Shown: piece by piece, positions 2,851 to 22,657 of the stretch
Position numbering within the stretch: the stretch's first letter is position 1
Layout: every line of letters starts with the position of its first letter
Assembly: GCA_028282585.1 (NCBI GenBank)
Contig: JANQHR010000047.1
Span: 32,001-96,000, forward strand
Source of the DNA: Bacteroidales bacterium
GTDB lineage: Bacteria > Bacteroidota > Bacteroidia > Bacteroidales > UBA12077
Direction: 5' to 3'
Length of the DNA stretch: 64,000 nucleotides
Made by a program: the position numbers and the translations under genes
Notes under the pieces: generated by a model
Told to the model about the DNA's origin: nothing
What the model saw: the letters and a program-made list of their open reading frames with translations, nothing else
Database searches by the model: none

Positions 2851-3047
2851 ATATTATTGAAAATCAAAAATAATTATTCTTATTTACGTTAAATAATTAA
2901 AGCAGGTTCTTGAGGGTTATAGAATGACGTTTTAAAATGGATAAATAAATATCTAAATTAAATCATATTTTAATTAATTACACAAATAGCTTATTGGACA
3001 ATAGACTTCAATATTAAAAAACAATTTGTATTTTAAAAATAAATGTT

Positions 3048-3076
3048 TAAATTTGTACTGTTAATATATTAACTGT
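3048..3076 (+). promoter_or_regulatory. Bacteroidota -7 promoter element plus palindromic operator (site 1)
   Basis: TAAATTTG at 3048-3055 followed by GTTAATATATTAAC at 3060-3073, just before the marR ATG. Confidence 0.7.
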
Positions 3077-3082
3077 TAATAA

Positions 3083-3508
3083 ATGAATTATAATAAAACA
3101 CTGCAAGTAGGAATAAATATCTCTCAGGTACACTGGTCCTTACAAAATTTTATCAACAAGAAATTAAGGCCAAATGGTATAACTCTAGATAAGCTACGTA
3201 TTATGAGTATTGTGAATTCAAATGAAGGTTGTTGTCAGCAATTTATTGCAGATAGTTTATTCAAAACCAAAACTGCAATTGCCAATATGACTGAAAATTT
3301 GGTAAAAGAAGATTTGGTAATTCGCATCCAGGACCCTGATAACAGGCGCTTGAATAAGATTTTTTTGACTCCGGAAGGGAAAAACTTACATGATAAATGT
3401 ATATCAGAAATAACTGACAATATGGAGCAAGTCTTTACGGATATAAAAAAAGAAGAAATTAATAATTTGCTAAAAGTCTTAGAGCAAATGAAAAATAATA
3501 TTGAGTAA
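3083..3508 (+). CDS. MarR-family transcriptional regulator
   Basis: 141 aa winged helix with QQFIA...LVKEDLVIRIQDPDNRRLNKIFLTPEG motif. Confidence 0.92.
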   Translation: MNYNKTLQVGINISQVHWSLQNFINKKLRPNGITLDKLRIMSIVNSNEGCCQQFIADSLFKTKTAIANMTENLVKEDLVIRIQDPDNRRLNKIFLTPEGKNLHDKCISEITDNMEQVFTDIKKEEINNLLKVLEQMKNNIE

Positions 3509-6362: not shown

Positions 6363-7556
6363 ATGTGCCCGAATTCATGTAAAAGTTGCAGAACAGGTAC
6401 TATTAGAAACAAAAGCAAAGTGACTCTGATTGTTTTGGGGTTGTTGCTTTTGTCATTACTATTAGGAAATTATTTTACATCAGGCGACAATTTCAGTGAA
6501 ATTACACAAAAATTACCTGAATATCGAATAAACCCTTTAAATGAAAATATATTTGAATATTATGTTAACGATTCCTTAATGGGATTTGGGGCAATCGGAC
6601 AAAGCAAAGGCTATGGAGGCCCTTTAACGGTAGCAGTTTTGGCTTCAAGAGACACTTCAATAAGGCAGGTGGTTCCCCTTTTAAATACCGAAACTCCGTC
6701 ATTTTATCAAAAATTTATTAATCAAGAGTTTTTTAAATTTTATAGTGGAGAGTCTTTGTATGTTGAACCCGTTGTAAACGCAGTCAGTGGTGCAACTGTA
6801 ACTTCAAATGCCTATCAATTAGCTGTAAGTAAAGCAATGAACCAGCTTTTAGAAGAGCAATTTCATAAAGAAACATGGCTCATAAAACCAAAGATGAATT
6901 TTAATAAAAATGAATGGATTGTACTGGTTTTTATGCTTTGCTCTTTCTGGCTATTCAGGCTGATTAAAAACAGGAAAACAAAATTATTATGGTATTTAGT
7001 AGTGGTTGTATTAATGGGATTTATATTAAAGATTCAACTTTCATCAACCCACTTAAGCGGTTTAGCAATAAATAAAATGCCAGGTTTATATAATAATTTG
7101 AATATTTGGATATTAGTGATTGGAGTGATTTTGGGTATACTTATTTTGGGCAGGAATTATTACTGTTTTCGTATTTGTCCGTTCCATGCCCTTCAATATT
7201 TATTATCGCAAATCAGCGACATTAACATTAAAACTGGTAAAAAGCTAAACACTGTTTTAAAATATGGATTGGCCACGGTAGTTTTTCTTTACTATACCAT
7301 TACATTTATAACACATGATCCTACCAAAGCTTTGTATGAACCTTTTTCGACCCTTTTTTCATTGCAAGGTACTGGTTTGCAGTGGTTATTTCTAATTCTG
7401 ATTTTAATAGCTGCTTTTCTTATCAAAAATGTATTCTGCAGATTTATGTGCCCTGTTGGATATTCTCTAAGTTACATTCAATCATTGCGATTGATAATAC
7501 TGAACAACATTAAAAAATCAAAAAAAAACGATCATGAAAAAAATAAGATTATATGA
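6363..7556 (+). CDS. RdhC/NosR-like FMN-binding, CxxxCP membrane electron-transfer protein
   Basis: KGYGGPL and NAVSGATVTS flavinylation motif; multiple TMs; CFRICP and CRFMCP. Confidence 0.85.
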   Translation: MCPNSCKSCRTGTIRNKSKVTLIVLGLLLLSLLLGNYFTSGDNFSEITQKLPEYRINPLNENIFEYYVNDSLMGFGAIGQSKGYGGPLTVAVLASRDTSIRQVVPLLNTETPSFYQKFINQEFFKFYSGESLYVEPVVNAVSGATVTSNAYQLAVSKAMNQLLEEQFHKETWLIKPKMNFNKNEWIVLVFMLCSFWLFRLIKNRKTKLLWYLVVVVLMGFILKIQLSSTHLSGLAINKMPGLYNNLNIWILVIGVILGILILGRNYYCFRICPFHALQYLLSQISDINIKTGKKLNTVLKYGLATVVFLYYTITFITHDPTKALYEPFSTLFSLQGTGLQWLFLILILIAAFLIKNVFCRFMCPVGYSLSYIQSLRLIILNNIKKSKKNDHEKNKII

Positions 7557-8502
7557 AATAATGAGAAAACCGCCTTTCTTTATGCGTGCTTCACATTATA
7601 TGAGAAAGGATGATAATCCGGTTAAAAGTGGAAATAAATCGCGCAAGGCAGTTATAATTCCTCTGGTACTGATGCAATTTGGAAGTATGAAAGATAAATT
7701 AGCTGCTATGGGTACTACAAAACCAGCATTTATAACTTCAATAAAGGAGATGATAAAAAGCGCTAGAGAATTAAAGAAGAACCCTAAAACCGGGAAAAAG
7801 CAAATCTCGAACAACACATTACAAGAACTTGAAATGTATGCTCGGGAACTAGGAGTTTCGCAAATAGCATACACGAAAGTAAATCCCAATTTTATTTTTG
7901 AGGGTTTTGAAATTCTTTATGAAAATGCCATGATTTTAACTATGGAGATGAAAAGAGATGCTATGAAATCTGCTCCATCAGATTATGCCACAAGCGAGGT
8001 TTGGCGGACATATTCAAATTTAGGACTGATAGTTAATAAACTTGCCGATTTTTTACGCGAACGAGGATATAACTGCCATCCAACTCCTGCGGTTGGAGGT
8101 GATGTATGTACTCCTCCTGTTGCGCAAGATGCAGGCTTTGGTGTTATTGGAAAACATGGTTTACTTATTACACCTGAATTTGGTCCATCACAGCGTATTG
8201 CAGCGGTGTTCATTGATGCTGATAATTTACCTGTAAAATCATTGCAAGAAAATGAACATCTGTGGGTAAAAGAGTTTTGCGAAACCTGTAACAATTGCAT
8301 CAAAAAATGTCCGGGAAGCGCAATTATGGAAGAAACTAAAATTCTTGATGATGGTTACCCAATTTATTTGGAAAGAGAAAAGTGCGCACCTTACTTTTCA
8401 AAAAATTGTTGCACATGCATTGCTACATGTCCATTTATTAATGGTAATTATGGAGAAATAAAGAAAGCATTTGAGAAAAAACAAGAAATTAACATGAACT
8501 AA
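7534..8502 (+). CDS. Second Rdh/QueG-like cobalamin and 4Fe-4S protein without a TAT signal
   Basis: AQDAGFGVIGKHGLLITPEFGPSQRIAAV; CETCNNCIKKCP and CCTCIATCP. Confidence 0.82.
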   Translation: MKKIRLYEIMRKPPFFMRASHYMRKDDNPVKSGNKSRKAVIIPLVLMQFGSMKDKLAAMGTTKPAFITSIKEMIKSARELKKNPKTGKKQISNNTLQELEMYARELGVSQIAYTKVNPNFIFEGFEILYENAMILTMEMKRDAMKSAPSDYATSEVWRTYSNLGLIVNKLADFLRERGYNCHPTPAVGGDVCTPPVAQDAGFGVIGKHGLLITPEFGPSQRIAAVFIDADNLPVKSLQENEHLWVKEFCETCNNCIKKCPGSAIMEETKILDDGYPIYLEREKCAPYFSKNCCTCIATCPFINGNYGEIKKAFEKKQEINMN

Positions 8503-9434: not shown

Positions 9435-10058
9435 ATGAAACAACAAATAAGCTCAATTCTGGAGGTTCTTAAACTTGCAGAGAAGCTTAAATTTGAGCTT
9501 CGGCACAGTTTTACATCAAACGGAAGACAGGAAAGTGTAGCTGAACATACTTGGAGAATGTCGTTAATGGCTGTTTTAATTGAACCCTTGTTGAAGAAAA
9601 AAGTGGATATGACCAGGCTTTTAAAAATGATCATTATACATGATTTAGTCGAAGCTGAGGCAAAAGATATTTCTGCCCTGGATGTTTTAAGAAATCCTGA
9701 AATTAAACTGGAAAAAATAGAAAATGAAAAACAGGCCATTGAAAACTTGCGTTCAATGTTACAATCCACAAATGGACAGGAAATCTATGATTTGTTTTAT
9801 GAGTTTGAGAATAAGAAAACATACGAATCCAAAGTAGCAAATGCTTTGGATAAGCTGGAAGTGCAACTTCAACATAATCATGCCGATTTTTCAACCTGGG
9901 AAGAAATTGAGTATGAAATGACCTATATGATGGATAAACATGTAGAGTTTGACTCGACACTATTTGAACTGAAAACTCAAATTGAAAATGAGGCAACAGG
10001 GAAAATGCAATCAAATGGGGTTGATACAGATCTTATTAAGAGAAAAGTCAAAAAATAA
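9435..10058 (+). CDS. HD-domain phosphohydrolase (YfbR/HDDC2-like)
   Basis: ESVAEHTWRM, IIHDLVEA and ALDKLE motifs. Confidence 0.9.
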   Translation: MKQQISSILEVLKLAEKLKFELRHSFTSNGRQESVAEHTWRMSLMAVLIEPLLKKKVDMTRLLKMIIIHDLVEAEAKDISALDVLRNPEIKLEKIENEKQAIENLRSMLQSTNGQEIYDLFYEFENKKTYESKVANALDKLEVQLQHNHADFSTWEEIEYEMTYMMDKHVEFDSTLFELKTQIENEATGKMQSNGVDTDLIKRKVKK

Positions 10059-10458
10059 GTAGAAGCTAATTCTAAAGCATAAGGTAAAAGGGTAGTTTTA
10101 CTGGTTTGACGACAACTAATAAAGTCTAGTAGATGTAATAAAGTCAAAATAAGTAGTAGTCGATTATTATACCATACACTAAAGAAATGCTAAAAATTGT
10201 CTTTTAAATTAACGTTATAATACTAATTACGTAATTTCTTCAAAAGACCAACTAATGCTTTTCTGTATTTTATTGATTTATTTAAAAATTACAGGTTAAA
10301 AATCAGCTTCGATAATTTCGATTTTCTAAGGCTTATTTGGATTTTTTATACACTTATTATTCTTATCCATACGATAAATAATTTAAAATATATGTTAGGA
10401 ATTTTTATATATATTTGCCAACCATTATTGATAAGTTATTTATTAACCTTAAACCCCA

Positions 10459-10746
10459 ATGATTATGAAAATCTTCGAAATTATCGAAAGGCTTGATCTT
10501 ATCTATAAATTAATTAAAGAACAGCAAACTGGAACAGCAAAAGAGTTTGCTCAAAAAGTAGGATTATCGCGAAGTCAGCTTTTTAACTACTTAGATTATT
10601 TAAAATCATTTGACATTGAAATAAAATACGATATTTTTTTAAACTCATATGTAATTGAAAGTAAAAAAGAGTTAAAAATTCAACAGCCCATTAGAGTTTT
10701 AAATGATTACGAACATACTAAAGTCGATGGGGAAGGAATTTTTTAA
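10459..10746 (+). CDS. Small HTH regulator (Bacteroidota TGT-x-x-EFA type), probable regulator of the peptide array
   Basis: ERLDLIYKLIKEQQTGTAKEFAQKVGLSRSQLFNYLDYLK; TATATTTG -7 element at 10410-10417. Confidence 0.8.
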   Translation: MIMKIFEIIERLDLIYKLIKEQQTGTAKEFAQKVGLSRSQLFNYLDYLKSFDIEIKYDIFLNSYVIESKKELKIQQPIRVLNDYEHTKVDGEGIF

Positions 10747-10847
10747 ATGATTTATTTCTAGTGTAAGTAGGGATCTTATTATAAAACATAAAAATTGAAG
10801 GGTCACCCTTTCAATATTTAGGGATTAACAGCCTAATGTTAATTCTT

Positions 10848-11088
10848 ATGAAAGTATTTGAAATTATGATTGATAAAAAGATATAGTTATGCTACTATAG
10901 CAGAAAAAATTGAAAATACAAATGAGTTTGCCAGGAGAGTAGGAATAATATCACGAGGTATTTTTTTTAATCATTTTGATTATTTAAAAGCATACGAAAT
11001 TGATACTAAGTTTGAAAAGAAGAAAAACTTTTTTGTAATTTCAAATTCTGTTGAAATAGGAGTTATAGAATCTATTCAGGTAATTTAA
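10848..11088 (+). pseudogene. Frameshifted paralogue of the upstream HTH regulator
   Basis: ATG 10848 gives MKVFEIM (cf. MKIFEII) then shifts frame into EFARRVGIISRGIFFNHFDYLKAYEID (cf. EFAQKVGLSRSQLFNYLDYLKSFDIE). Confidence 0.75.
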
Positions 11089-11116
11089 AATGTTAAATTT
11101 TTATAAAAAATTAAAG

Positions 11117-11258
11117 AGTCCAATTTTATTGGACTGGGTAGGTATTAAATTCGTTCACAGAACGGATGAAAACCATAAGGCGCCAAAGGTAAATATATCC
11201 GTTTTGGGCGGATACTGAAAAGCCTTAAAAGAGTAAGTATTAAACTTAAAAATAAAAA
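11117..11258 (+). repeat. Cassette leader repeat copy 1 (palindrome + promoter + 5' UTR)
   Basis: AGTCCAAT-TTT-ATTGGACT palindrome, TAAATTCG, then a conserved ~100-nt leader ending at the precursor ATG; near-identical copies at 13126 and 13826. Confidence 0.95.
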
Positions 11259-11426
11259 ATGGAAAATTTAGAAAATTACGGAGTTGAACTTCTTGACAAA
11301 CAAGGAGTAAAAGAAATTAATGGAGGTAAAGCTTGGCCTTGGTACGTTGCACTAGCGATTTGGATATACGATAATCGAAGTGATATTAAAGAGGGGTGGG
11401 ATTCATATGAACCAAAATATAGTTAG
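11259..11426 (+). CDS. Double-glycine precursor peptide 1 (class A core)
   Basis: MENLENYGVELLDKQGVKEINGG|KAWPWYVALAIWIYDNRSDIKEGWDSYEPKYS (55 aa, manual translation). Confidence 0.9.
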   Translation: MENLENYGVELLDKQGVKEINGGKAWPWYVALAIWIYDNRSDIKEGWDSYEPKYS

Positions 11427-11451
11427 AAATTACTAAAGTAGAAAAGTAGTT

Positions 11452-11616
11452 ATGGAAAATCAAGAAATAAAGTTTATGGAGCTTTCCAATTTGGAAAGAG
11501 AGCAAATTAACGGTGGTGGTGATATTGCAAGGGATCTTGGTTACGCTCTTCATTGGGCATGGGATCATTGGGTACATTTCGCTGCTGATATTTTACCAAA
11601 TACTCGTATGCCATAA
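11452..11616 (+). CDS. Double-glycine precursor peptide 2 (class B core)
   Basis: MENQEIKFMELSNLEREQINGG|GDIARDLGYALHWAWDHWVHFAADILPNTRMP (54 aa). Confidence 0.9.
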   Translation: MENQEIKFMELSNLEREQINGGGDIARDLGYALHWAWDHWVHFAADILPNTRMP

Positions 11617-11633
11617 TATTGTAGTTAAGAATA

Positions 11634-11667
11634 ATCATATCACTTTATAACTATAAAGTGATATGAT
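11634..11667 (+). other. 16-bp perfect inverted repeat between precursors and the immunity-like gene
   Basis: ATCATATCACTTTATA-AC-TATAAAGTGATATGAT. Confidence 0.85.
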
Positions 11668-11688
11668 GTTATTTTATAAATAAAAAAT

Positions 11689-12033
11689 ATGAAAGAAAAA
11701 GTTCTAAAAAAAATAATGCCTTATGGCTATAAAGTGATCGAACATGATGATACAGTATTAATAAAGAGCTATTTTGGTAATTTAAAAATAAGTTACAATA
11801 ATAAATCTTATAGTATAACGAAAAAATTTAATTTTAGTAATTATTCTTTATTGGCTTTTTTAATTTTCTTTTTTATAGTCGTTTATGAGGGTAGACATGA
11901 TATAGATGTAATTATATATGTTATAATTTCCTTAGCTATTATTATGCAAATCTTTTATAATTCAATAATGCTTGAAATAAGAAAAAATAAATTACATTCA
12001 GTTTTAGATGAAATTTTTAATTCTTATGAATAA
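11689..12033 (+). CDS. Small membrane protein, putative immunity protein
   Basis: 114 aa, two C-terminal TM helices, directly after the precursor pair; function inferred from context. Confidence 0.65.
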   Translation: MKEKVLKKIMPYGYKVIEHDDTVLIKSYFGNLKISYNNKSYSITKKFNFSNYSLLAFLIFFFIVVYEGRHDIDVIIYVIISLAIIMQIFYNSIMLEIRKNKLHSVLDEIFNSYE

Positions 12034-12110
12034 CTATTTCTGGTGAAGGATTTTTAATACTAAGGCGAATTTTTTATTTATTACCAAATAATTGATCAAT
12101 AATTTTTTTT

Positions 12111-12272
12111 ATGATTTTAGAAGATTTAAGTTTTATCAGAACTGAAAAGATCAGACACTATTAATAAAAATGGTGGAGAAAAAGAACGGTTACTTCTGTT
12201 TGGAGCTTTTGGAATTGGTGTTTGGTAGGTTATAATAAATATGAACCGGAGCAGACAAATAAAGATCAGTAG
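12111..12272 (+). pseudogene. Frameshifted double-glycine precursor
   Basis: Removing one T in AGTTTTATCA gives MILEDLSLSELKRSDTINKNGG|EKERLLLFGAFGIGVW*; a second shift continues GYNKYEPEQTNKDQ*. Confidence 0.7.
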
Positions 12273-12291
12273 TCATTTTGGAGAAAATTAA

Positions 12292-12323
12292 GTATGGTCA
12301 TTATTAGCTAATATTGACCATAC
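12292..12323 (+). other. Near-perfect inverted repeat after the pseudo-precursor
   Basis: GTATGGTCATTATTAG/CTAATATTGACCATAC (1 mismatch). Confidence 0.8.
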
Positions 12324-12350
12324 CATAAATTATTAAATTATTAAATTCGA

Positions 12351-12710
12351 ATGGAGAAAATGGATTTAGTTTTAAATAACGGGCTGATTATTATAGGCTT
12401 ATTGTTGTCTTATTCTATTATGTCACAGGTTTTTTTAAAAAAAGAATTAGGAGGTCAAATAAGGACTAAACTAAAAGAAAATATTTTATTAATCGGATTT
12501 ACATTATATATATTCATTGGAATGTTTTTTGGTTTAGGAATCTTATTTAGTATTGGAATTTCAATAACTGTATTTGGTATTTTAAAGCTTATTCCTAATA
12601 AAATATGGGTAGAGCAGTATTTCCAAGGTTTATATATTACATTACAAGTCGCCTATATTTCAACCATAATAGTATTGTTAATATATTTTATTTTTAAGCT
12701 CATAGTTTAA
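12351..12710 (+). CDS. Small multi-TM protein, putative immunity protein
   Basis: 119 aa, ~4 hydrophobic helices, same position as the other cassette membrane genes. Confidence 0.65.
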   Translation: MEKMDLVLNNGLIIIGLLLSYSIMSQVFLKKELGGQIRTKLKENILLIGFTLYIFIGMFFGLGILFSIGISITVFGILKLIPNKIWVEQYFQGLYITLQVAYISTIIVLLIYFIFKLIV

Positions 12711-12898
12711 GCTAGTACAGATAAGGTAATTATTACCCATAATTTGACCTGTAATTCATAGCAAGGTTTATGAGGTTAATAACTTTTACTACAAAAAATT
12801 ACTTTATGTTGTTGATATTGAAATATTTAAAAATAAGATGAAAATGTGACTTATGTGTTCGAAGTTGAAAAATGTACCGATTTATATGTATAATTCAT

Positions 12899-13022
12899 AT
12901 AAATAAAACATTATATTCTATAAGAATTAAGCAAAACACAATTGAATATTCTTTACCAATATAATACAACCAAAAATCATGTATTATTTATTATAGTTGC
13001 TATAGCATTTGTTTGTATTTAA
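12899..13022 (+). pseudogene. Decayed hlyD 5'-end relic 1
   Basis: INKTLYSIRIKQNTIEYSLP/(fs)NTTKNHVLFIIVAIAFVCI aligns with HlyD MNKKVYPTDIVESTVEYHLTQNSTKSQVIYITVILAFIVAI. Confidence 0.6.
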
Positions 13023-13125
13023 GTTTCCGAAAGAATAGTGAATACTTTTAAGATTATTTAAAACATTTATTAGTCATAAGCATATTAATAATTCAAAATG
13101 GTTAAATCATCATGCAAAATGGAAG

Positions 13126-13268
13126 AGTCCAATTTTATTGGACAGGGTGCGTATTAAATTCGTTCACAGAACGGATAAAAATCATAAGGCGCCATAGGTA
13201 AATAAATCCTTTTTAGTCGGATACTGAAAAGCCTTAAAAGAGTAAGTATTGAATTTAAAAATGATAAA
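13126..13268 (+). repeat. Cassette leader repeat copy 2
   Basis: AGTCCAATTTTATTGGACAGGGTG...CATAAGGCGCCA...CGGATACTGAAAAGCCTTAAAAGAGTAAGTATT, ending at the precursor ATG. Confidence 0.95.
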
Positions 13269-13421
13269 ATGGAAACAAAGGTTAAAGAACTTTCAGAACA
13301 TGAAATTATAAATATTAATGGTGGTGATGGTTTTGCTGAAGATGTTGGAGAAATTATAGGTTTTAGTATTAAATTTAATTATAATGTTTTGAAATGGGTT
13401 TATGACTCTATAATAGGATAA
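13269..13421 (+). CDS. Double-glycine precursor peptide 3 (class B core)
   Basis: METKVKELSEHEIININGG|DGFAEDVGEIIGFSIKFNYNVLKWVYDSIIG (50 aa). Confidence 0.9.
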   Translation: METKVKELSEHEIININGGDGFAEDVGEIIGFSIKFNYNVLKWVYDSIIG

Positions 13422-13444
13422 AAGCACTTAATGATTTTTTACGT

Positions 13445-13487
13445 AATACAAGCTTAGGTTTTATTACTAAAAATCTAGGTTTGTATT
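13445..13487 (+). other. 18-bp RNA hairpin after precursor 3
   Basis: AATACAAGCTTAGGTTTT...AAAATCTAGGTTTGTATT; all three non-Watson-Crick pairs are G.U on the + strand. Confidence 0.8.
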
Positions 13488-13516
13488 TTTATAAACTTTT
13501 AATAGATAAAAAAACT

Positions 13517-13633
13517 ATGAAGATTTTTAAGCGGAAAAGAGATTTTATAGTCTTGGTTATAAGCATTATTGTTTCTTTAATAATATTTAAAAATTGGGAG
13601 TTAATAAAGGAATTCTTGAGTTCGTTATTTTAA
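13517..13633 (+). CDS. 38-aa single-TM microprotein, putative immunity peptide
   Basis: MKIFKRKRDFIVLVISIIVSLIIFKNWELIKEFLSSLF; A-rich initiation region; immunity slot of the cassette. Confidence 0.65.
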   Translation: MKIFKRKRDFIVLVISIIVSLIIFKNWELIKEFLSSLF

Positions 13634-13660
13634 AGATTTCTTAACGGGTAGGATTAGGTT

Positions 13661-13762
13661 ATGGTAGAAAAATACCCGGCAAATATTGTTGGAAGTACTG
13701 CCACATATCATTTATTTAAAAACTCAATCAAAAGACAGGTAATATATAATGCAGTGGTGTAA
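13661..13762 (+). pseudogene. hlyD 5'-end relic 2
   Basis: MVEKYPANIVGSTATYHLFKNSIKRQVIYNAVV* vs HlyD MNKKVYPTDIVESTVEYHLTQNSTKSQVIYITVI. Confidence 0.8.
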
Positions 13763-13825
13763 AATTTATTATTACTTTGGTTAAGATGCTACTCGTTTTC
13801 TGCATTTTTTAAAAAAAAGGGTGAA

Positions 13826-13967
13826 AGTCCAATTTTATTGGACAGGGTGCTTATTAATTTCGTTCACGAACGGATAAAAACCATAAGGCGCCAAAGGTAA
13901 ATATATCCGTTTTGGGCGGATACTGAAAAGCCTTAAAAGAGTAGGTATTAAACTTAAAAATTATAAA
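13826..13967 (+). repeat. Cassette leader repeat copy 3
   Basis: Closely matches copy 1 (few substitutions, 1-nt indels) and ends at the precursor ATG. Confidence 0.95.
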
Positions 13968-14141
13968 ATGGAAAATTTAGAAAATTATGGAGTAGTTTCT
14001 TTGGACACGAAAGAAATGCAAGAAACTGAAGGAGGCAACCCTTGGGCAATATTTGCTGCTGGACTTGTTTTAGGTGCTATCATTAGTGATTGGGCAGGCT
14101 TTAAAAATGGAATAATGGATGGAATTGCTGATAATCAATAA
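13968..14141 (+). CDS. Double-glycine precursor peptide 4 (class A core)
   Basis: MENLENYGVVSLDTKEMQETEGG|NPWAIFAAGLVLGAIISDWAGFKNGIMDGIADNQ (57 aa). Confidence 0.92.
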   Translation: MENLENYGVVSLDTKEMQETEGGNPWAIFAAGLVLGAIISDWAGFKNGIMDGIADNQ

Positions 14142-14152
14142 GAATTAATAAT

Positions 14153-14308
14153 ATGGAAAATTTAGAATTATTAAGAATAGAAGAATTAAGTAATATTAAT
14201 GGAGGTGAACCAACAAGAGATACATCGTTTGGATATGATGTAGGTTATGCTATTGGAACAATGCTTACTGCCAAATTTTGGGAAGATTGGTCAATTAGTA
14301 TACTTTAA
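14153..14308 (+). CDS. Double-glycine precursor peptide 5 (class B core)
   Basis: MENLELLRIEELSNINGG|EPTRDTSFGYDVGYAIGTMLTAKFWEDWSISIL (51 aa). Confidence 0.92.
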   Translation: MENLELLRIEELSNINGGEPTRDTSFGYDVGYAIGTMLTAKFWEDWSISIL

Positions 14309-14325
14309 ATAAATTTGTATTACTA

Positions 14326-14363
14326 TTATGTTCCGTAATTTGTTTTATAATTGCGGAACATAA
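14326..14363 (+). other. 15-bp RNA hairpin after precursors 4/5
   Basis: TTATGTTCCGTAATT...AATTGCGGAACATAA with a single U.G pair. Confidence 0.8.
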
Positions 14364-14374
14364 ATTACTAATTA

Positions 14375-14593
14375 ATGAAATCAAATATGAAATCAATTCT
14401 ATTAAAATACATAGTTATAATTATAGCAATGTATTTCTTTCATTTAATTATTGCTAATTGGGCTTTTATAAAATCTTTGATTGAAGGCTTTCATCAAAAA
14501 AAGTTTATTTTTCTAGACCTTAAGTTGTTTATTGTAAATTTTTTTGTTGTATTAGCCTTTCTTGTTCTTGACTTATATAAAAAGATCTTTTAA
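14375..14593 (+). CDS. Small 2-TM protein, putative immunity protein
   Basis: 72 aa, hydrophobic, LIIANWAFIKSL; immunity slot of the cassette. Confidence 0.65.
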   Translation: MKSNMKSILLKYIVIIIAMYFFHLIIANWAFIKSLIEGFHQKKFIFLDLKLFIVNFFVVLAFLVLDLYKKIF

Positions 14594-14612
14594 TATAAAT
14601 AGGGGAAATTGT

Positions 14613-14730
14613 TTATATCTTGCGGCTATTAATGAAAGCACGGCTAAATACCATTTAGCAAAAAACTCAACAAAAAGTCAAATTATTTAAAAAGCCGTAA
14701 TTCTGCCTTTTATTTATTATAATTACGTTA
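14613..14730 (+). pseudogene. hlyD 5'-end relic 3
   Basis: LYLAAINESTAKYHLAKNSTKSQII*KAVILPFI vs HlyD VYPTDIVESTVEYHLTQNSTKSQVIYITVILAFI. Confidence 0.8.
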
Positions 14731-14993
14731 GTTAACTTGATCAATTTGGTAAGGCGTTTGAAAAATTATCTAAATGAACAGCCTTAATCTGTTATCTGTT
14801 CATTGAATTTTCCAAAAAATATAACAAATTACTATTATGATCCTAATATTATGGAAATGGTAAAATTGTATAAAAGTTTATGTATTACTTTAAAAAAGTA
14901 GATATAAAAGATGAAATTTTAAAATTAAGCCTGTTGAAATTAGGGCAAATTTAGATGATAATGAAGAGTTTTATGAATATTTAACTTATCCAC

Positions 14994-16151
14994 ATGAATA
15001 AAAAAGTATATCCAACAGATATAGTTGAAAGCACAGTCGAATACCATCTAACGCAAAACTCGACCAAAAGCCAGGTAATATATATTACAGTAATTTTAGC
15101 ATTTATTGTTGCCATAGCCTTGTTACCATTTGTTTATATAAATATAACAGTACAAGGAGGTGGTATTGTAAGACCGGTTACAGAAAAAACAGAGGTAAAA
15201 GCATTGGTTTCAGGTAGAGTTGCAAATGTTTTTATAGAGAATGAGCAACAAGTTTTAGAGGGAGATACTGTGTTAATTGTTCAAAGCGATAAATTAAGTA
15301 GTCAGCATAATTTACTTCAAAAACAAATAAAAGAAAAAAGGGATTTTATAAGCGATTTAGAAAAATTGGTAATTCTTAAAGCTTCAACCTTTAATTCAGA
15401 TAAATACCAGGGAGAGTATTTTAAATTCAAAGAACAGATTACACAAGTAAAAAATAAACGAAAAAAAGCAAAAAGAGAACTTGACAGAAACAAAGTTTTA
15501 CTTGAACAAGAGTTTATAAGCAAAAAAGAATACGACGATTTAAATTATCAATACCTATTAGCAGACAATGAATACAATTTGACCGTTACCAATCAGTTAA
15601 GTGTTTGGAAGTCAGATTTAAGTCGTTGCAGGTCAACTATGGAAGACCTAAAATCACAGTTAGAACAACTACAAAAAGAACAAGAGTTTTATGTAATAAA
15701 AGCACCGGTAACCGGTACCATTGAGCAATTTGCAGGGATTTATGAAGGAACCAATATTCAGTCGGGTCAAATTATTGCAGGAATAAGCCCGGAAACCGAT
15801 TTAATTGCAGAAGTTTACATATCACCTAAAGATATCGGTTACCTTAAAGAAGGAACTCCCTTAAATATTCAGGTTGATGCATTTAATTACAACGACTGGG
15901 GAATGATCAAAGGTGAGATTATTAATATTTCAGATGACTATATTTTGCTAGAAAATCAACCGGTGTTTAAAATCCGTTGTAAAATGGAGCAAAATCAACT
16001 TAGCCTGAGAAATGGGATAACAGGAGACGTAAAAAAAGGCATGACTATTAGAGCAAGGTTTTTGTTGGCAAAAAGGTCCTTATACCAGCTATTGTTTGAT
16101 AATGTAAATGACTGGTTAAATCCTGCCCAAAACAACAATTCCAAGAAGTAA
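14994..16151 (+). CDS. HlyD-family membrane fusion protein (peptide export)
   Basis: N-terminal TM, lipoyl-like halves (VLEGDTV, IKAPVTGTI), coiled coil, VDAFNYNDWGMIKG. Confidence 0.93.
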   Translation: MNKKVYPTDIVESTVEYHLTQNSTKSQVIYITVILAFIVAIALLPFVYINITVQGGGIVRPVTEKTEVKALVSGRVANVFIENEQQVLEGDTVLIVQSDKLSSQHNLLQKQIKEKRDFISDLEKLVILKASTFNSDKYQGEYFKFKEQITQVKNKRKKAKRELDRNKVLLEQEFISKKEYDDLNYQYLLADNEYNLTVTNQLSVWKSDLSRCRSTMEDLKSQLEQLQKEQEFYVIKAPVTGTIEQFAGIYEGTNIQSGQIIAGISPETDLIAEVYISPKDIGYLKEGTPLNIQVDAFNYNDWGMIKGEIINISDDYILLENQPVFKIRCKMEQNQLSLRNGITGDVKKGMTIRARFLLAKRSLYQLLFDNVNDWLNPAQNNNSKK

Positions 16152-16166
16152 TCAACAGATATCAGA

Positions 16167-18347
16167 ATGAAAAAATCAGTAAGAATCAAACAGCATGATA
16201 TTACCGATTGTGGGGCGGCTTGCCTGGCATCCATAGCAGCACATCATGGATTAAAATTACCTATATCAAAAATACGGCAATATGCTTCAACCGATCAAAA
16301 AGGAACCAATGTTTTGGGAGTAATAGAAGCAGCAGAAAAGTTGGGATTTACTGCAAAAGGTGTAAAAGGTCCTTTTGAAAGTTTGTTTAAGATTCCTAAA
16401 CCAACGATCGCACATATCATTGTAAAAGAAAGATTGCACCATTATGTAGTTATATATAAGACAACAAAAAAATATATTATTATTATGGATCCGGGCACAG
16501 GCAGGATTCATAAAAAAACGCATGAGGAATTTAAAAAGGAATGGACAGGTATTTTAATTCTCATTATGCCTGATAAGTCTTTTAAAAAAGGAAATGAAAA
16601 AACTTCCATAACAAAACGTTTCTTTCAATTAATACGCCCGCACAGAACTATCATGATCCAGGCACTTTTTGGAGCCATTATATACAGTATTTTGGGTTTA
16701 TCTACTTCAATCTATGTTGAAAAAATAGTTGATTATGTTTTGGTAGATGGTAATTTAAACTTGCTTAACCTTCTAAGCACAATTATGATTGCTTTATTAC
16801 TCTTGCGAGTTTATATCGGAGTGATGAAAAGTATTTTTGCCTTGAAAACGGGACAAAAGATGGATGCCGCTTTAATATTGGGTTATTACAAACACCTGAT
16901 GAGACTTCCTCAACGTTTTTTTGATACTATGCGAACAGGGGAAGTCATTTCAAGAATAAATGATGCAGTTAAAATACGAACATTTATTAACAATGTATCG
17001 CTCGATTTGGCTGTTAATGTCATGATCGTATTTTTCACCTTTTCGTTAATGTTTATTTACTCCTGGAAGTTAGCTTTAATTGTTTTGGCGGCTATTCCGT
17101 TATATATTGTAATTTATCTTATTTATAATAAGTTAAATAAGAAATACCTGCGAAGAAATATGGAAAATGCTGCAGAACTAGAATCACAACTGGTTGAGTC
17201 CATCAATGCATCATCTACCATTAAAAGATTTGGATTGGAGAAATTTGCCAATTTAAAAACAGAGACTCGTTTTATAAAGTTATTAAGTTCCACTTATCAT
17301 TCTGTAAAAAATTCCATCTTTTCAAGTAGTTCGACTACTTTTATAGCAGGTGCAGTCACAATAGCCGTTCTTTGGATAGGTTCTAGGAGTGTAGTAAGTC
17401 AGGAAATGACTCCGGGTGAATTAATGTCTTTTTATGCTTTAATAGGTTATATTCTAAGTCCACTTGCAGGTTTAATTGATACTAACAAGGTGGTTCAGGA
17501 TGCTTTGATTGCAGCAGACCGCTTATTTCAGATCATGGATTTGGAGATGGAAGAAACAGAGAAAGAAAAGATGATATTGACACCTGATATGATAGGAGAT
17601 ATTAATTTCAAAAATGTATCCTTTAGGTATGGCTCCAGAGTTACCGTTTTTGAAAACCTGGATTTAACGATTCAAAAGAATAAAATGACAGCCATAGTCG
17701 GTGAAAGTGGTTCGGGTAAAACAACGCTTATATCACTGTTACAAAACATTTATCCTTTGCAATCCGGGAATATTGAATTCGGAAAATATAACCTTAACTA
17801 CATAAGTAATGAAAGCCTTAGGGAAATGGTAAGTGTTGTTCCTCAAAAGATTGATTTATTTGCAGGCAGTATACTTGAGAATATAGCCATTGGAGATTTA
17901 GAGCCTGATATGAAAAGAACAATAGATATTTGCCAATCATTAGGAATTATGAAGTTTATCGAGAAGCTACCAGGTGGTTTTCAAACCTATGTTGGAGAGA
18001 ATGGAGTTTCACTTTCAGGAGGTGAAAAGCAAAGAATTGCTATTGCTCGGGCTTTATATAAGAATCCGGAAGTATTAATATTAGATGAGGCTACATCCTC
18101 ACTTGACTCTGCTTCAGAACAATATGTTCAACAAGCCATACAATATTTAAAAAATCAAAATAAGACCATAATCGTCATTGCTCATAGATTAAGTACCGTA
18201 ATGAATGCAGATGAAATCTTTGTTCTAAATGAAGGTAAGGTAGTTGAAAATGGAGATCATCAGGAACTAATTGATGGAAGAGGATTTTATTATAATTTAT
18301 GGAAACAACAATTTCCAATGTTAAAAGAGTTAGAATTAATGCATTGA
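16167..18347 (+). CDS. Peptidase C39-containing ABC transporter (PCAT, GG-leader processing exporter)
   Basis: QHDITDCGAACL, HHYVV...MDPG catalytic residues; ABC membrane domain; GESGSGKTT, LSGGEKQR, ILDEATS. Confidence 0.96.
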   Translation: MKKSVRIKQHDITDCGAACLASIAAHHGLKLPISKIRQYASTDQKGTNVLGVIEAAEKLGFTAKGVKGPFESLFKIPKPTIAHIIVKERLHHYVVIYKTTKKYIIIMDPGTGRIHKKTHEEFKKEWTGILILIMPDKSFKKGNEKTSITKRFFQLIRPHRTIMIQALFGAIIYSILGLSTSIYVEKIVDYVLVDGNLNLLNLLSTIMIALLLLRVYIGVMKSIFALKTGQKMDAALILGYYKHLMRLPQRFFDTMRTGEVISRINDAVKIRTFINNVSLDLAVNVMIVFFTFSLMFIYSWKLALIVLAAIPLYIVIYLIYNKLNKKYLRRNMENAAELESQLVESINASSTIKRFGLEKFANLKTETRFIKLLSSTYHSVKNSIFSSSSTTFIAGAVTIAVLWIGSRSVVSQEMTPGELMSFYALIGYILSPLAGLIDTNKVVQDALIAADRLFQIMDLEMEETEKEKMILTPDMIGDINFKNVSFRYGSRVTVFENLDLTIQKNKMTAIVGESGSGKTTLISLLQNIYPLQSGNIEFGKYNLNYISNESLREMVSVVPQKIDLFAGSILENIAIGDLEPDMKRTIDICQSLGIMKFIEKLPGGFQTYVGENGVSLSGGEKQRIAIARALYKNPEVLILDEATSSLDSASEQYVQQAIQYLKNQNKTIIVIAHRLSTVMNADEIFVLNEGKVVENGDHQELIDGRGFYYNLWKQQFPMLKELELMH

Positions 18348-18455: not shown

Positions 18456-18839
18456 ATGGATAAGAAGCAAAAAACATATTTGATATTATCGATTTTTATT
18501 GTATTTACGGCACTTTTATTGACCTATTTGTATAGGCCATTTATTGTATAACAATAATATTAATGATTATGGATTTGCTGATGCAATTGGAAGTTTAGCA
18601 TCGGTTATTGCAGTATGTTTTTTCCTTTGGTCTTTTAAAAATTACCCTAACAGTGAAAAAAACAAACATATTATATTGGCTATGCTCGTTTATACAGTTA
18701 TTTGGGAGCGTTAGGCTTAATAGGTGTTCATGGTACTTTTGATTGGAAGGATATAATTGCAGTATTTATAAGTGGTGGTTTGGCATATTTATTAAAATAA
18801 ATTATAGAAAAAAGAGTTTCACATATTACTAAACTATAA
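18456..18839 (+). pseudogene. Frameshifted membrane protein gene
   Basis: Fragments MDKKQKTYLILSIFIVFTALLLTYLYRPF / NNNINDYGFADAIGSLASVIAVCFFLW...WE / LGLIGVHGTFDWKDIIAVFISGGLAYLLK* join across two frameshifts and a stop. Confidence 0.6.
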
Positions 18840-22126: not shown

Positions 22127-22657
22127 TTAATTGGTTTTGTTTTCAAAACTTTTTTTGTACTCATCAAAAGATACTGTTTTAAAGGCGTCTTCGGCAAAAA
22201 ACATTAGAACCGGTTCCAAAGCGTCAGCTGTGTAATATCCTGGAACTGCTGTCAGTAGCTGATTGTTTTCATTTAAATATGCCATGGAAGGGTAAGACAT
22301 TTTACCTTGTAATAAAGCAACTGCTAACTGATGGGGTGACCTTCTTCCATTTCCATCGTTTACAAAAAGTTGCCCTGCAAAGTTAATCGTGTCTTTTGAT
22401 TCTGCATCAAACTTAACTGCATAATATTCTTCGTTCAGAATCTTAGCAATAGTTGGATGGGTAAATGTAGTTGCTTCCATTTTTTTGCACCACCCACACC
22501 AATCGGTATAAACATCAATAAAAATTTTTCTTTGTTCTTTCTTATTTAGCTCGATCGCCTCTTCAATACTGTACCATTTTACCTCGTTTTCCTGCCCACT
22601 AACATTTAAACACGTAATAAGGAATATAGCGATATAGCTTATCGTCCATTTTTTCAT
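22127..22657 (-). CDS. Secreted thioredoxin-fold protein (DUF255-like)
   Basis: Signal peptide; YTDWCGWCKKM; cis-Pro loop MSYPS. Confidence 0.88.
   Translation of the reverse strand: MKKWTISYIAIFLITCLNVSGQENEVKWYSIEEAIELNKKEQRKIFIDVYTDWCGWCKKMEATTFTHPTIAKILNEEYYAVKFDAESKDTINFAGQLFVNDGNGRRSPHQLAVALLQGKMSYPSMAYLNENNQLLTAVPGYYTADALEPVLMFFAEDAFKTVSFDEYKKSFENKTN

Follow-up and report, generated by a model that had tools for sequence, protein, structure and literature searches.

Three tandem, apparently recombination-built units of small peptide and membrane-protein genes ahead of one predicted C39 exporter in a Bacteroidales bacterium

Introduction

What would a bacterium do with several unlike small peptide genes, set in repeated units and placed in front of a single peptidase-containing exporter, and how could such a series arise? 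The question is raised by a window of 64,000 nucleotides (the whole stretch of DNA analysed, to which all coordinates refer; the features of the locus lie on its + strand) from an uncultured Bacteroidales bacterium. Judged from sequence, the locus is a series of three tandem peptide and membrane-gene units, apparently built by recombination, ahead of one C39 exporter; chance as the origin of the pattern is excluded, because of the identities between the repeats and the intact homologous precursor ORFs found in other genomes.

Results

The small ORFs upstream of the HlyD and PCAT genes include six double-glycine (GG) precursors: five are intact, Cys-free and 50-57 aa long, and the sixth is doubly frameshifted. 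These are the very numbers proposed in the initial annotation, and ORFs and frame analysis bear them out. Each unit runs from an element with an operator-like palindrome and a promoter-like or 5′-leader DUF805b motif, through one or two precursor genes and a hairpin, to a small membrane gene, and is closed by a relic of the hlyD 5′ end (3/3). This is the order proposed before; the units, however, are three and not four, because a third hlyD relic (12899-13013) ends unit 1, whose contents include two membrane genes and the broken precursor. GC content is 24-27% over 10-15 kb, against 30-34% in the adjoining flanks.

Unit 1 holds precursors A1 (11259..11426; 55 aa, type-1 leader) and A2 (11452..11616; 54 aa, type-2 leader), whose cores both have 32 aa and 0 Cys, with net charges of -1 and -2 and 4 and 3 Trp, respectively, as well as the broken GG precursor (12111..12270), in which two frame changes leave the start in the first frame, the rest of the leader with its GG and the early core in the +1 frame, and the end of the core in the first frame again. 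Unit 2 has precursor C (13269..13421; 50 aa, type-2 leader, core of 31 aa, net charge -3, 0 Cys) and unit 3 has D1 (13968..14141; 57 aa, type-1 leader, core of 34 aa, net charge -2, 0 Cys) and D2 (14153..14308; 51 aa, type-2 leader, core of 33 aa, net charge -3, 0 Cys). The GG lies at residue 18-23 in all five intact precursors, and each of their cores is anionic, with a net charge of -1 to -3. The leader had been described as nearly constant, which it is not, because there are two leader types; leaders are 30-61% identical in pairwise comparison (10 pairs), as opposed to 12-30% for the cores, and high conservation is limited to the DNA element and the opening ~30 nt of the first ORF. That cores and membrane genes differ between modules holds for both, the membrane ORFs being 10-21% identical and mutually unrelated. 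Adjacent type-1 and type-2 pairs recur in the related loci G025 and L005.

A match of the cores to known bacteriocin families, which had been suggested as a check, did not emerge: in the profile search the peptides all stayed below the cut-off of every family model. Matches below cut-off to class II families (TIGR03949, NF038035, TIGR01847, PF10439) are mainly leader-driven. GxxxG-type motifs occur in D1, D2 and C, whilst A1 has no small-xxx-small motif at all; the D1 core has several small-xxx-small motifs and sub-threshold class II/IIb profile matches, and the D2 core has two GxxxG motifs and scores 21.5 bits against the Bacteriocin_IIc profile, under its cut-off of 27.1. One homologue in a relative carries the NCBI name class IIb lactobin A/cerein 7B family bacteriocin.

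Hairpins lie 3′ of the precursor genes (z of -4.7, -2.6, -2.7 and -6.0 versus shuffles). The one after A2 (11634..11667; -18.7 kcal/mol, z -4.66) is terminator-like, with 15 bp followed by a T-rich tail, and that after D2 (14326..14363; -18.7 kcal/mol, z -5.97) also has 15 bp; those after the broken precursor (12292..12323; -14.5 kcal/mol, z -2.62) and after precursor C (13426-13480; weak, z -2.70) complete the set. They are followed by the candidate immunity genes A (11689..12033; 114-aa ORF, 2 predicted TM, no Pfam family at or above cut-off), B (12351..12710; 119-aa ORF, 3 predicted TM), C (13517..13633; 38-aa ORF, or 50 aa from TTG 13481, 1 predicted TM) and D (14375..14593; 72-aa ORF, 2 predicted TM), none of which was assigned a Pfam family. 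From their position, an immunity role for these small membrane proteins is probable. In two related loci a CPBP/Rce1-like gene (PF02517, 68.5 and 26.5 bits) stands beside the peptide genes: in G025 between peptides and hlyD, the slot of the small membrane genes in the window, and in L005 immediately upstream of the peptides. The CPBP/Rce1 family is linked to class II bacteriocin self-immunity.

Each intact precursor set is preceded by a conserved element of ~150-180 nt, seen as a 180-nt direct repeat in three copies with 74-86% identity to the reference copy and a mean column identity of 86%. Copy A (11087..11266) has a palindrome at 11118-11134, a hairpin-forming stretch and a DUF805b motif at 11205-11239; copy C (13096..13275) has the palindrome at 13127-13143 and a DUF805b-like motif at 13214-13248; copy D (13795..13974) has the palindrome at 13827-13843 and the motif at 13913-13947. 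Copies A and D (38.5 and 42.9 bits) top the gathering score of 35.6 for the Rfam DUF805b RNA (RF02914), whereas copy C (26.2 bits) is sub-cut-off, with one pair of its 4-bp stem broken without compensation. DUF805b is widespread in Bacteroidales, and in the loci examined it lies 21-31 nt ahead of the start codons of genes for many kinds of secreted proteins and for GG peptides, with a DUF805-like ORF downstream in one case only. A promoter or translation-start element fits these data as well as a structured RNA does.

Upstream of the units lies HTH1 (10459..10746), a 95-aa winged-HTH (HTH_11-like) putative regulator scoring 19.8 bits against HTH_11, under the cut-off of 25. The proposed arrangement of an HTH gene upstream and HlyD and PCAT downstream is confirmed, except that there is a second HTH gene, HTH2′ (10842..11088). 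This paralogue of HTH1 is decayed and frameshifted at its 5′ end; it matches profile positions 5-84 with 2 internal stops and ends before the GG-like motif. That motif, resembling a GG leader and followed by a short tail, is conserved in 83/97 homologues of the HTH_11 regulator of this locus type; in HTH1 it is degenerate (G-E-G, then 2 residues), and the HTH1 cluster, listed twice, is the sole one with G-E at the site among the 97. Regulators of the HTH_11 type lie near PCATs in 13/20 sampled loci, and no description of one bearing a GG-leader-like motif was found in the literature searched. Control of all units by a single regulator is plausible, because the 17-bp palindrome is common to all three. 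HTH1 lacks the motif usual in its relatives and HTH2′ is broken, both of which count against the one-regulator idea.

The exporter itself is intact, as had been proposed. The HlyD-family membrane-fusion (periplasmic adaptor) protein (14994..16151; 385 aa) has HlyD_3 and HlyD_D23 matches and matches TIGR01843 at E 4.5e-39, under that model's cut-off. The Peptidase-C39 ABC exporter, or PCAT (16167..18347; 726 aa), scores 538.4 bits against TIGR01193 (cut-off 523.85) and 128.5 bits for Peptidase_C39, and has the Gln/Cys/His/Asp catalytic set, Q9, C15, H92 and D108 being invariant in 9/9 aligned PCATs.

Three relics of the hlyD 5′ end, all breaking off at hlyD nt ~91-118, close the units. Relic 1 (12899..13013), absent from the earlier record, is degraded and frameshifted (tblastn E 0.011 and 0.004 in two frames), with 63-69% nucleotide identity over hlyD nt 1-114/118 and 66% to the resident hlyD. 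Relic 2 (13661..13762) has 59% amino acid identity (E 5e-8) and 75% nucleotide identity over hlyD nt 6-98. Relic 3 (14613..14714; E 1e-8) is 82% and 78% identical in nucleotides to the hlyD of G016 and L006, versus 68% to the resident hlyD. A further relic (14933..14998) is the last 22 codons of a ~190-aa gene that precedes hlyD in relatives (59-68% amino acid identity, E 8e-7 to 2e-6). The hlyD relics and this gene relic show recombination. Comparison across relatives (one genome per species), which had been proposed to reveal whether cassette number and content vary, found them not to be invariant: the two relatives from the genus, G025 and G016, each carry one unit, with other peptides and accessory genes. 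A Paludibacter locus likewise has an hlyD 5′ relic ORF upstream of intact hlyD.

Discussion

The locus is read here, with reasonable rather than strong confidence, as a recombination-built, multi-cassette array of class II (unmodified, GG-leader) microcins or bacteriocins with their immunity genes. The C39 domain of the PCAT, from what is known of its family, would cut every precursor after GG, and the 31-34-aa anionic, Trp-rich, Cys-free cores would leave through the ABC transporter, the HlyD adaptor and an outer-membrane channel whose gene would lie elsewhere, as the locus has none. The pairs A1+A2 and D1+D2 would probably be two-peptide toxins, the producer being probably protected by the small membrane proteins and the hairpin probably passing only part of the transcripts onward. 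The array may have grown by recombination at two stretches of homology, the conserved 5′ element and the opening ~100 nt of hlyD, every event leaving a truncated hlyD 5′ relic, and at least one unit may be of foreign-lineage origin.

Five observations speak against the class II reading: the anionic cores, the lack of any model at cut-off, the small membrane ORFs that match no family, the decay in the locus and the missing channel gene. Many pore-forming class II bacteriocins are cationic.

The peptides could instead be signals or pheromones, or have another non-toxic exported role, with the membrane proteins as receptors or accessory factors, which we consider unlikely. PCATs are described as exporting quorum-sensing peptides too (PMC7018657), the cores are anionic and Trp-rich and not cationic, a dedicated small HTH regulator belongs to this locus type and bacteriocin family cut-offs are reached by no peptide. 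However, several distinct peptides, with an unrelated small membrane gene for each, make the pattern of toxin and immunity genes, and the CPBP/Rce1-like genes beside peptide genes in two related loci and the GxxxG motifs in the paired peptides also argue against signalling. Such systems would usually hold one match of peptide and receptor and not divergent cassettes.

We give rather little weight to the idea of a remnant, mostly silent or in decay, in which debris of recombination has built up and some or all cassettes are no longer expressed or exported. Signs of decay are the two frameshifts of one precursor, the broken HTH2′, the absence from HTH1 of the conserved [GA]G motif and tail, the three hlyD relics and one gene relic, and the sub-cut-off DUF805b copy of unit 2. 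Against them stand five precursor ORFs, four membrane ORFs, HlyD and PCAT, all intact, the retained catalytic residues of the PCAT, the DUF805b gathering score topped by 2/3 copies and a hairpin position conserved in every unit.

Very improbable, in our judgement, is that the peptides are precursors of modified peptides (RiPPs) and that the genes for the tailoring enzymes lie at other sites in the genome. DUF805b does precede Cys-rich GG precursors beside a LanC-like gene on another contig of the same genome, Bacteroidales GG precursors with no PCAT or enzyme nearby have been reported (PMC10352776), and a 322-aa Cys-rich ORF (7534-8502) has no Pfam match. Yet the claim that the cores are Cys-free and that no modifying enzyme is encoded here is supported: the cores have 0 Cys, a Pfam scan of six flanking ORFs within 7.5-19.5 kb and of the thioredoxin-fold ORF (22127-22657) gave no modifying-enzyme family, and the order of peptide gene, hairpin and small TM gene fits unmodified class II systems.

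An assembly artefact joining allelic cassettes of co-existing strains at shared repeats deserves hardly any credence, even in a metagenome-type assembly of 173 contigs with 3.9% contamination and with an exact run of ~67 nt (counted on the alignments) shared by element copies A and D, since the unit-end relics, being stop-containing or merely 63-82% identical to intact hlyD genes, are unusable as exact assembly repeats, truncated relics would be missing from allelic single-unit loci and the Paludibacter locus has one too.

Comparison with known systems

The favoured array of class II peptides and immunity genes recalls several known systems. Class IIb bacteriocins (lactococcin G, lactobin A/cerein 7B) are like the locus in having a neighbouring pair of precursor genes with a single small membrane gene behind it; the GxxxG-type motifs of D1 and D2 and the sub-threshold NF038035 and TIGR03949 matches add to the likeness. 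The differences are that the profile matches are all under cut-offs and mainly leader-driven, that A1 has no small-xxx-small motif and that the cores are anionic. The HTH proteins with a GG-like motif recall, in turn, the long-leader precursors of the NHLP and Nif11 types, whose folded N-terminal domain of ~70-90 aa is taken from a different protein family and is followed by a GG-type site and a C-terminal peptide that is short and variable, and which are encoded beside PCATs. N-terminal domain, GG-type site, short C-terminal tail and PCAT proximity are shared, but the N-terminal domain is here a winged HTH of DNA-binding type, modifying enzymes are not consistently adjacent and cleavage at the motif is putative.

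In the initial annotation the architecture was not recognised as a described one for Bacteroidales, which holds in part. GG peptides with a PCAT and a membrane-fusion protein (MFP) are already recognised as common there (PMC10352776, PMC6671954) and putative class II microcins are reported as abundant in Bacteroidaceae, as metagenome hits (PMC12219008), and variable arrays of bacteriocin and immunity genes that feed one PCAT are textbook knowledge from blp; the tandem, relic-bounded arrangement of units in Bacteroidales was not found in the literature searched, nor was a description of tandem units seen in PMC12219008. Bacteroidetocins, as described in PMC6671954, are likewise Bacteroidales GG-leader peptides whose production needs the adjacent PCAT; however, they have leaders of 15-16 aa and at least 2 Cys with disulfides, usually come with a 5-TM protein and a gene for a thiol oxidoreductase, and have no immunity protein. 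The locus, which has leaders of 18-23 aa, Cys-free cores, small TM genes and an HlyD gene but lacks an oxidoreductase, was rejected as one of these.

Also similar is the MccV type (CvaA/CvaB/TolC), described as a GG-leader unmodified small protein with a PCAT and an HlyD-type adaptor, a small inner-membrane immunity protein (putative here) whose gene adjoins that of the toxin, and a channel in the outer membrane with its gene at another site (PMC12219008, PMC10352776), although the known class II microcins are described from Enterobacteriaceae and mostly with one toxin per locus, unlike the tandem units here. Pneumococcal blp, which the locus resembles, is portrayed as a strain-variable array of GG-leader bacteriocin genes and small immunity genes, diversified by recombination and served by one peptidase ABC exporter, the PCAT BlpAB (PMC4860687, PMC3171984, PMC6422914). 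It is Gram-positive and without a membrane-fusion protein, whilst the locus has HlyD, and its control lies with a two-component system and the BlpC pheromone; the locus here has no kinase gene and instead an HTH_11-type protein of ~100 aa. Unlike in blp, hlyD 5′ relics delimit the units here, and the ~150-nt element is repeated in every unit.

Results

The assembly comprises 4.9 Mb in 173 contigs, and all features at 10.4-18.4 kb of the window lie on the plus strand, by both the ORF list and the sequence. These are two small HTH-like genes (HTH1, 10459-10746, and HTH2', a decayed paralogue at 10842-11088 with a 5' frameshift), five intact small ORFs (55, 54, 50, 57 and 51 aa) with a double glycine (GG) at residue 18-23, a sixth precursor ORF in the first unit that is broken by two frame changes, four small hydrophobic ORFs, an HlyD-family gene (14994-16151, 385 aa) and an ABC exporter gene (16167-18347, 726 aa). 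Judged by its sequence, the exporter is a peptide cleavage/export transporter (PCAT): it scores 538.4 bits with TIGR01193 (cut-off 523.85) and 128.5 bits with Peptidase_C39 (PF03412), ABC_membrane and ABC_tran are also found, and Gln9, Cys15, His92 and Asp108 are invariant in 9/9 aligned PCATs. The HlyD-family protein exceeds the cut-offs of PF13437 and PF16576, and matches TIGR01843 at E 4.5e-39, under that model's cut-off. The ORF list of the locus holds no TolC-type outer-membrane channel. There is no oxidoreductase gene at the locus either, the nearest thioredoxin-fold gene lying at 22127-22657 on the opposite strand, and no histidine kinase or response-regulator ORF within 7.5-24.4 kb. 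Directly 3' of the PCAT gene, three overlapping or abutting short ORFs with hydrophobic stretches (18456-18800; 31, 56 and 32 aa) look like one fragmented small membrane gene. Upstream, an ORF of 322 aa (7534-8502), with two Cys clusters of ferredoxin-like type, has no Pfam match at E <= 1e-3 and no obvious tie to the peptide locus.

The repeated nature of the locus rests on a direct repeat of 180 nt, with three copies starting at 11087, 13096 and 13795 (mean column identity 86%), and which takes in the initial ~30 nt of the first precursor ORF (93% identity). Every copy has a perfect 7+3+7 palindrome as well as two more hairpin-forming stretches. Further hairpins lie 3' of the precursor genes (z -4.7, -2.6, -2.7 and -6.0 against shuffles), and the four ORFs that follow them, with 2, 3, 1 and 2 hydrophobic segments, have a mutual identity of 10-21% and match no Pfam family; these 1-3-TM ORFs occupy the position expected of immunity genes. 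The initial annotation had noticed two truncated hlyD 5' relics, both of which are confirmed, yet its count was incomplete, as a sensitive tblastn search recovers a third, frameshifted one at 12899-13013. All three end at hlyD nt ~91-118, and none was found after the first membrane gene (12034-12110). Since there are three relics, one closing each unit, the array consists of three units on the plus strand: unit 1 (11087-13013) with the broken precursor and two membrane genes, and units 2 (13096-13762) and 3 (13795-14714), each running from a repeat copy to its relic. Directly 5' of the intact hlyD lies yet another relic, the last 22 codons of a ~190-aa gene found before hlyD in two relatives. 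No HTH remnants were found upstream of units 2 and 3, where the best weak matches are precursor leaders. GC content is 24-27% over the cassettes (10000-15000) against 30-34% in the adjacent flanks and up to 42% further out, with a strongly positive GC skew between 11 and 15 kb (0.21-0.30).

The five intact precursors (A1, A2, C, D1 and D2; 50-57 aa) and the broken one are as first annotated, and so is the lack of Cys, all five cores being free of it; these cores are 31-34 aa long, Trp-rich and of net charge -1 to -3. The leader, earlier described as nearly constant, is not so: it comes in two types (type-1 and type-2), with 30-61% identity over the ten pairs, yet is more conserved than the cores (12-30%), and in the alignment it has acidic and hydrophobic positions in common with relatives. 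Adjacent type-1/type-2 pairs are formed by A1/A2 and D1/D2, and also occur in two relatives. GxxxG-type motifs are present in D1, D2 and C, while A2 has small-xxx-small motifs alone and A1 none. All matches of these peptides to PF10439, TIGR03949, NF038035 and TIGR01847 are under the cut-offs. A profile of the peptide family, searched against 5.8 billion proteins, returned just 18 at E <= 0.01; the queries account for several of these, and NCBI names one a class IIb lactobin A/cerein 7B family bacteriocin.

Comparison with relatives shows how variable such loci are. HlyD matches at E <= 1e-60 in 7/37 genomes of the genus, four of them (including this genome) with at least 73% identity. In one relative (G025) the HTH gene and the palindrome are followed by two GG peptides, a CPBP/Rce1-like membrane gene, hlyD and PCAT, in this order; another (G016) has a single GG peptide after the HTH gene, and then two other genes before hlyD and PCAT; and a 79%-identical MAG locus (L005) has HlyD and PCAT first, then HTH, a CPBP-like gene, two GG peptides and, last, a small membrane gene. 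CPBP/Rce1-like genes thus adjoin peptide genes in two related loci (G025 and L005). Given these differences in make-up, unit number and content vary among relatives, which bears out the variability of cassette content first proposed. The three-unit array is confined to this genome among those examined, a full-length match to the conserved element to this genome and G025 among the 61 searched, and a hlyD 5' relic ORF is also present in a Paludibacter locus. The third relic (14613-14714) is 82% identical in nucleotides to hlyD of G016 and 78% to that of locus L006, against 68% to the resident hlyD.

The only Rfam family matched in 10300-15100 is the DUF805b motif (RF02914), found at 11205-11239, 13214-13248 and 13913-13947; it scores 42.9, 38.5 and 26.2 bits in element copies D, A and C, respectively, with a gathering score of 35.6. 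The 150-nt element as a whole is not a compelling structured RNA (z -3.5, -1.6 and -1.9). A sigma-70-type promoter scan was uninformative (35 sites against 36.3 +/- 6.9 in shuffles), and metagenome scans with palindrome-based and internal two-block patterns of the element gave 0 matches each. The motif itself is widespread, with RF02914 matches in 117/151 sampled Bacteroidales genomes (above cut-off in 81), seven of them in this genome, and none in 14 control genomes. In 23 of the best 30 loci (L027-L056) a motif-core pattern picks out 29 sites, followed after 21-31 nt by the next start codon. The genes 3' of these sites mostly encode signal-peptide proteins or lipoproteins and only once a DUF805-like ORF, and small unannotated GG-leader ORFs follow eight of them.

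Several other DUF805b sites adjoin peptide genes. In this genome, on contig C149 (L004), the motif precedes a 64-aa Cys-rich GG-leader precursor (1558-1752) beside a gene read as LanC-like from its translation alone (1895-3052), with a second C39 exporter (13859-14224 of the contig) ~6 kb downstream; the third PCAT of this genome is on contig C105. The motif is hence not specific to cassettes but generic. Also downstream of the motif are a 54-aa Cys-rich GG-leader ORF on contig C123 (L109, 1554-1718) and, on the reverse strand of contig C65 (L112), a 39-aa HTH fragment (1104-1223) and then a 68-aa GG peptide (1553-1759). In another genome (L045, G132:C104:4953-7987) each of three tandem motifs precedes a Cys-rich GG-leader ORF (67-86 aa), and a member of the window's HTH family (G132:C104:8288-8509) adjoins them. 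As far as can be read from sequence, L045 is another cassette array of the same logic with Cys-rich peptides.

HTH1 (95 aa) scores 19.8 bits with PF08279 (HTH_11), whose gathering score is 25, and HTH2' does not match that model; many of the homologues have a precomputed PF08279 match, and the Atlas neighbours of the family are Bacteroidota HTH_11 clusters. The HTH proteins of these loci (10459-10746 in the window, L026:8116-8406 on the minus strand, L025:9906-10241, L008:7645-7962, L009:9617-9934 and L005:4183-4533) align on a motif at residues ~78-90 that resembles a double-glycine leader and is followed by a short tail. Among the 97 proteins of at least 90 aa from the best 120 of 139 homologues, the aligned site reads [GA]G in 83 (41 GG and 42 AG), and conservation extends to Gly at -1 (88), Leu at -12 (83), Glu at -8 (77) and Ile at -15 (74), with a tail of 7-44 aa (median 18). 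HTH1 itself is the exception, with a degenerate site (G-E) and an end in G-E-G plus a two-residue tail. When the last 16 leader residues from 12 cassette peptides were made into a profile and this was run on the HTH homologues, 16/95 reached at least 5 bits with matches ending at residues 86-91, against 0-2 in each of ten shuffles and none in reversed sequences. At E <= 10, bacteriocin-leader models (TIGR01847 and others) did not match any of ten HTH homologues, these proteins are not covered by any curated NCBIfam family, and no HTH protein with a GG site is described in the literature searched.

An exhaustive profile search extended the family to 3,110 cluster representatives at E <= 1e-3 and 1,925 (50%-identity clusters) at E <= 1e-10. 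The motif occurs in 91/141 (strict) or 116/141 (relaxed) new representatives among the best 150, counts that are biased upward by the inclusion of the motif region in the profile. Of the Bacteroidales genomes searched for the family, 45/301 have a match. Regions of +/-8 kb around 20 of the 78 matches listed, chosen roughly by score, leaving aside contig-end matches and this genome's own, and with further matches per genome only where they fell inside a stretch already chosen, contain a C39-PCAT in 13 cases, with a chance rate of ~1% per random 16-kb stretch as estimated from three PCATs in the 4.9 Mb of this genome; 18 of the 24 HTH ORFs in these regions have the motif. L092 (G133:C5) has two near-identical HTH and DUF805b copies ~7.7 kb apart on the minus strand (2845-3237 and 10510-10902), the first with a 52-aa GG peptide, and no PCAT in the 18.9 kb fetched. 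In L090 (G320:C5, 7941-8914, minus strand) an HTH-GG gene stands beside what appears to be just the final ~200 codons of a PCAT (60% identity to residues 521-722), of which no C39 part was found.

AlphaFold2 models the G025 HTH as a confident winged HTH at residues ~1-64 (block mean pLDDT 81-97), followed by a low-confidence linker, a short helix at 81-87 that coincides with the leader-like stretch, and a disordered tail (pLDDT < 50), and Foldseek finds weak matches to the N-terminal winged HTH domains of NiaR, BirA and Mga (best E 7.9e-3). Prediction of its complex with the G025 C39 domain, taken as residues 1-150 (alignments of 46 and 9 rows, respectively), gave 'weak support', with a score of 0.49 against 0.00 for the best of three controls, at least 90% contact agreement between runs and a partner pLDDT of at least 72. 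The pass mark is reached by 58/80 solved complexes and 2/110 mismatched pairs, and passes at <= 0.60 comprise 7/80 solved complexes and both passing mismatches, a calibration that holds just roughly with our own alignments as input. The pair may owe its pass to similarity with C39-leader complexes already solved.

Discussion

The tandem, relic-bounded form of the array suggests that in Bacteroidales recombination can stack cassettes of peptide and membrane genes before a single exporter. The closer resemblance of the third relic to the hlyD of relatives, together with the low GC of the cassettes, leads us to infer serial recombination, through either unequal crossover or the integration of incoming fragments, with the conserved element and the initial ~100 nt of hlyD as the presumed homology anchors.

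The two leads that emerged alongside the array are more novel than it is, and may matter more. The first is the DUF805b motif, whose source is presumably Weinberg et al. 2017 (PMC5737381), a paper with no mention of 'DUF805' in its main text. The motif in copy C has a 4-bp stem with one broken pair, which weakens its reading as a structured RNA, and a promoter or translation-start element may fit it at least as well. In the loci examined it marks the region in which genes for secreted proteins, and for many unannotated GG peptides, start, and so offers a cheap handle for finding the latter. This re-reading is a computational lead and unproven.

The second, equally a computational and unproven lead, is a family of regulators with what appears to be a built-in exporter site. 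It is tempting to speculate that these ~100-aa HTH_11-type proteins beside Bacteroidota PCATs, made of a winged HTH, a canonical double-glycine leader helix (with a hydrophobic residue at -15, Leu at -12, Glu at -8, a hydrophobic residue or Thr at -4, and [GA]G at -2/-1) and a variable, aromatic-rich tail of 7-44 aa, are themselves substrates of the exporter. The neighbouring C39 domain would cut them and the tail would be exported as a pheromone or small toxin, whilst the DNA-binding 'leader' would stay in the cytoplasm, coupling transcription of the GG-peptide cassettes, read via the palindrome adjoining the DUF805b motif, to the activity of the exporter. In the window this circuit would be broken, given the G-E-G and two-residue tail of HTH1. 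Taken as a whole, from substrate to broken circuit, we regard this reading as tentative and rather more apt to be wrong than right. If true, Bacteroidota would possess a regulatory circuit based on peptides, of a type that lacks a described example in the phylum. The apparent cleavage site makes the regulation of peptide export, and possibly peptide signalling, directly testable in this phylum.

As to the array, we favor its reading as a toxin/immunity system, because there are several divergent peptides, each with an unrelated small membrane gene of its own, because CPBP-type genes adjoin peptide genes in the two related loci, and because the paired layout of the peptides suits two-peptide toxins. 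The anionic cores and the sub-threshold family scores of the peptides, however, speak against it. Cleavage, export, toxicity and immunity are attributed here by analogy with established PCAT systems, as described in PMC6671954, PMC12219008 and PMC10352776. The initial observation is confirmed with corrections and its interpretation partly supported: variable content stands, toxin/immunity is the probable reading, and the nearly constant leader falls.

Among known systems, the export of class II GG-leader bacteriocins and microcins is matched in its GG leaders, C39 ABC exporter and HlyD adaptor, all of which are present. Resemblance to the two-peptide class IIb is partial: units 1 and 3 have adjacent pairs and GxxxG is present in both D1 and D2, but class IIb calls for the motif in both peptides, and A1 lacks it while A2 has small-xxx-small only; the class IIb models TIGR03949 and NF038035 stay under their cut-offs. 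In Bacteroidota, to our knowledge, bacteroidetocins alone have been worked out so far. According to PMC6671954, these have a 15-16-aa leader, at least two Cys in disulfides, and genes for a thiol oxidoreductase and a 5-TM protein, and membership is rejected for leaders of 18-23 aa, five Cys-free cores and a locus without an oxidoreductase. Quorum regulation of the blp type is dismissed too, the region of 7.5-24.4 kb having no kinase or response-regulator ORF and, as candidate regulators, the ~100-aa HTH_11-like proteins. The locus is a system of known kind, in which GG peptides and a PCAT/MFP exporter serve a variable, putative toxin/immunity array, and the novelty first claimed for it narrows to the relic-bounded tandem form, which is new for Bacteroidales and parallels the diversification of streptococcal blp.
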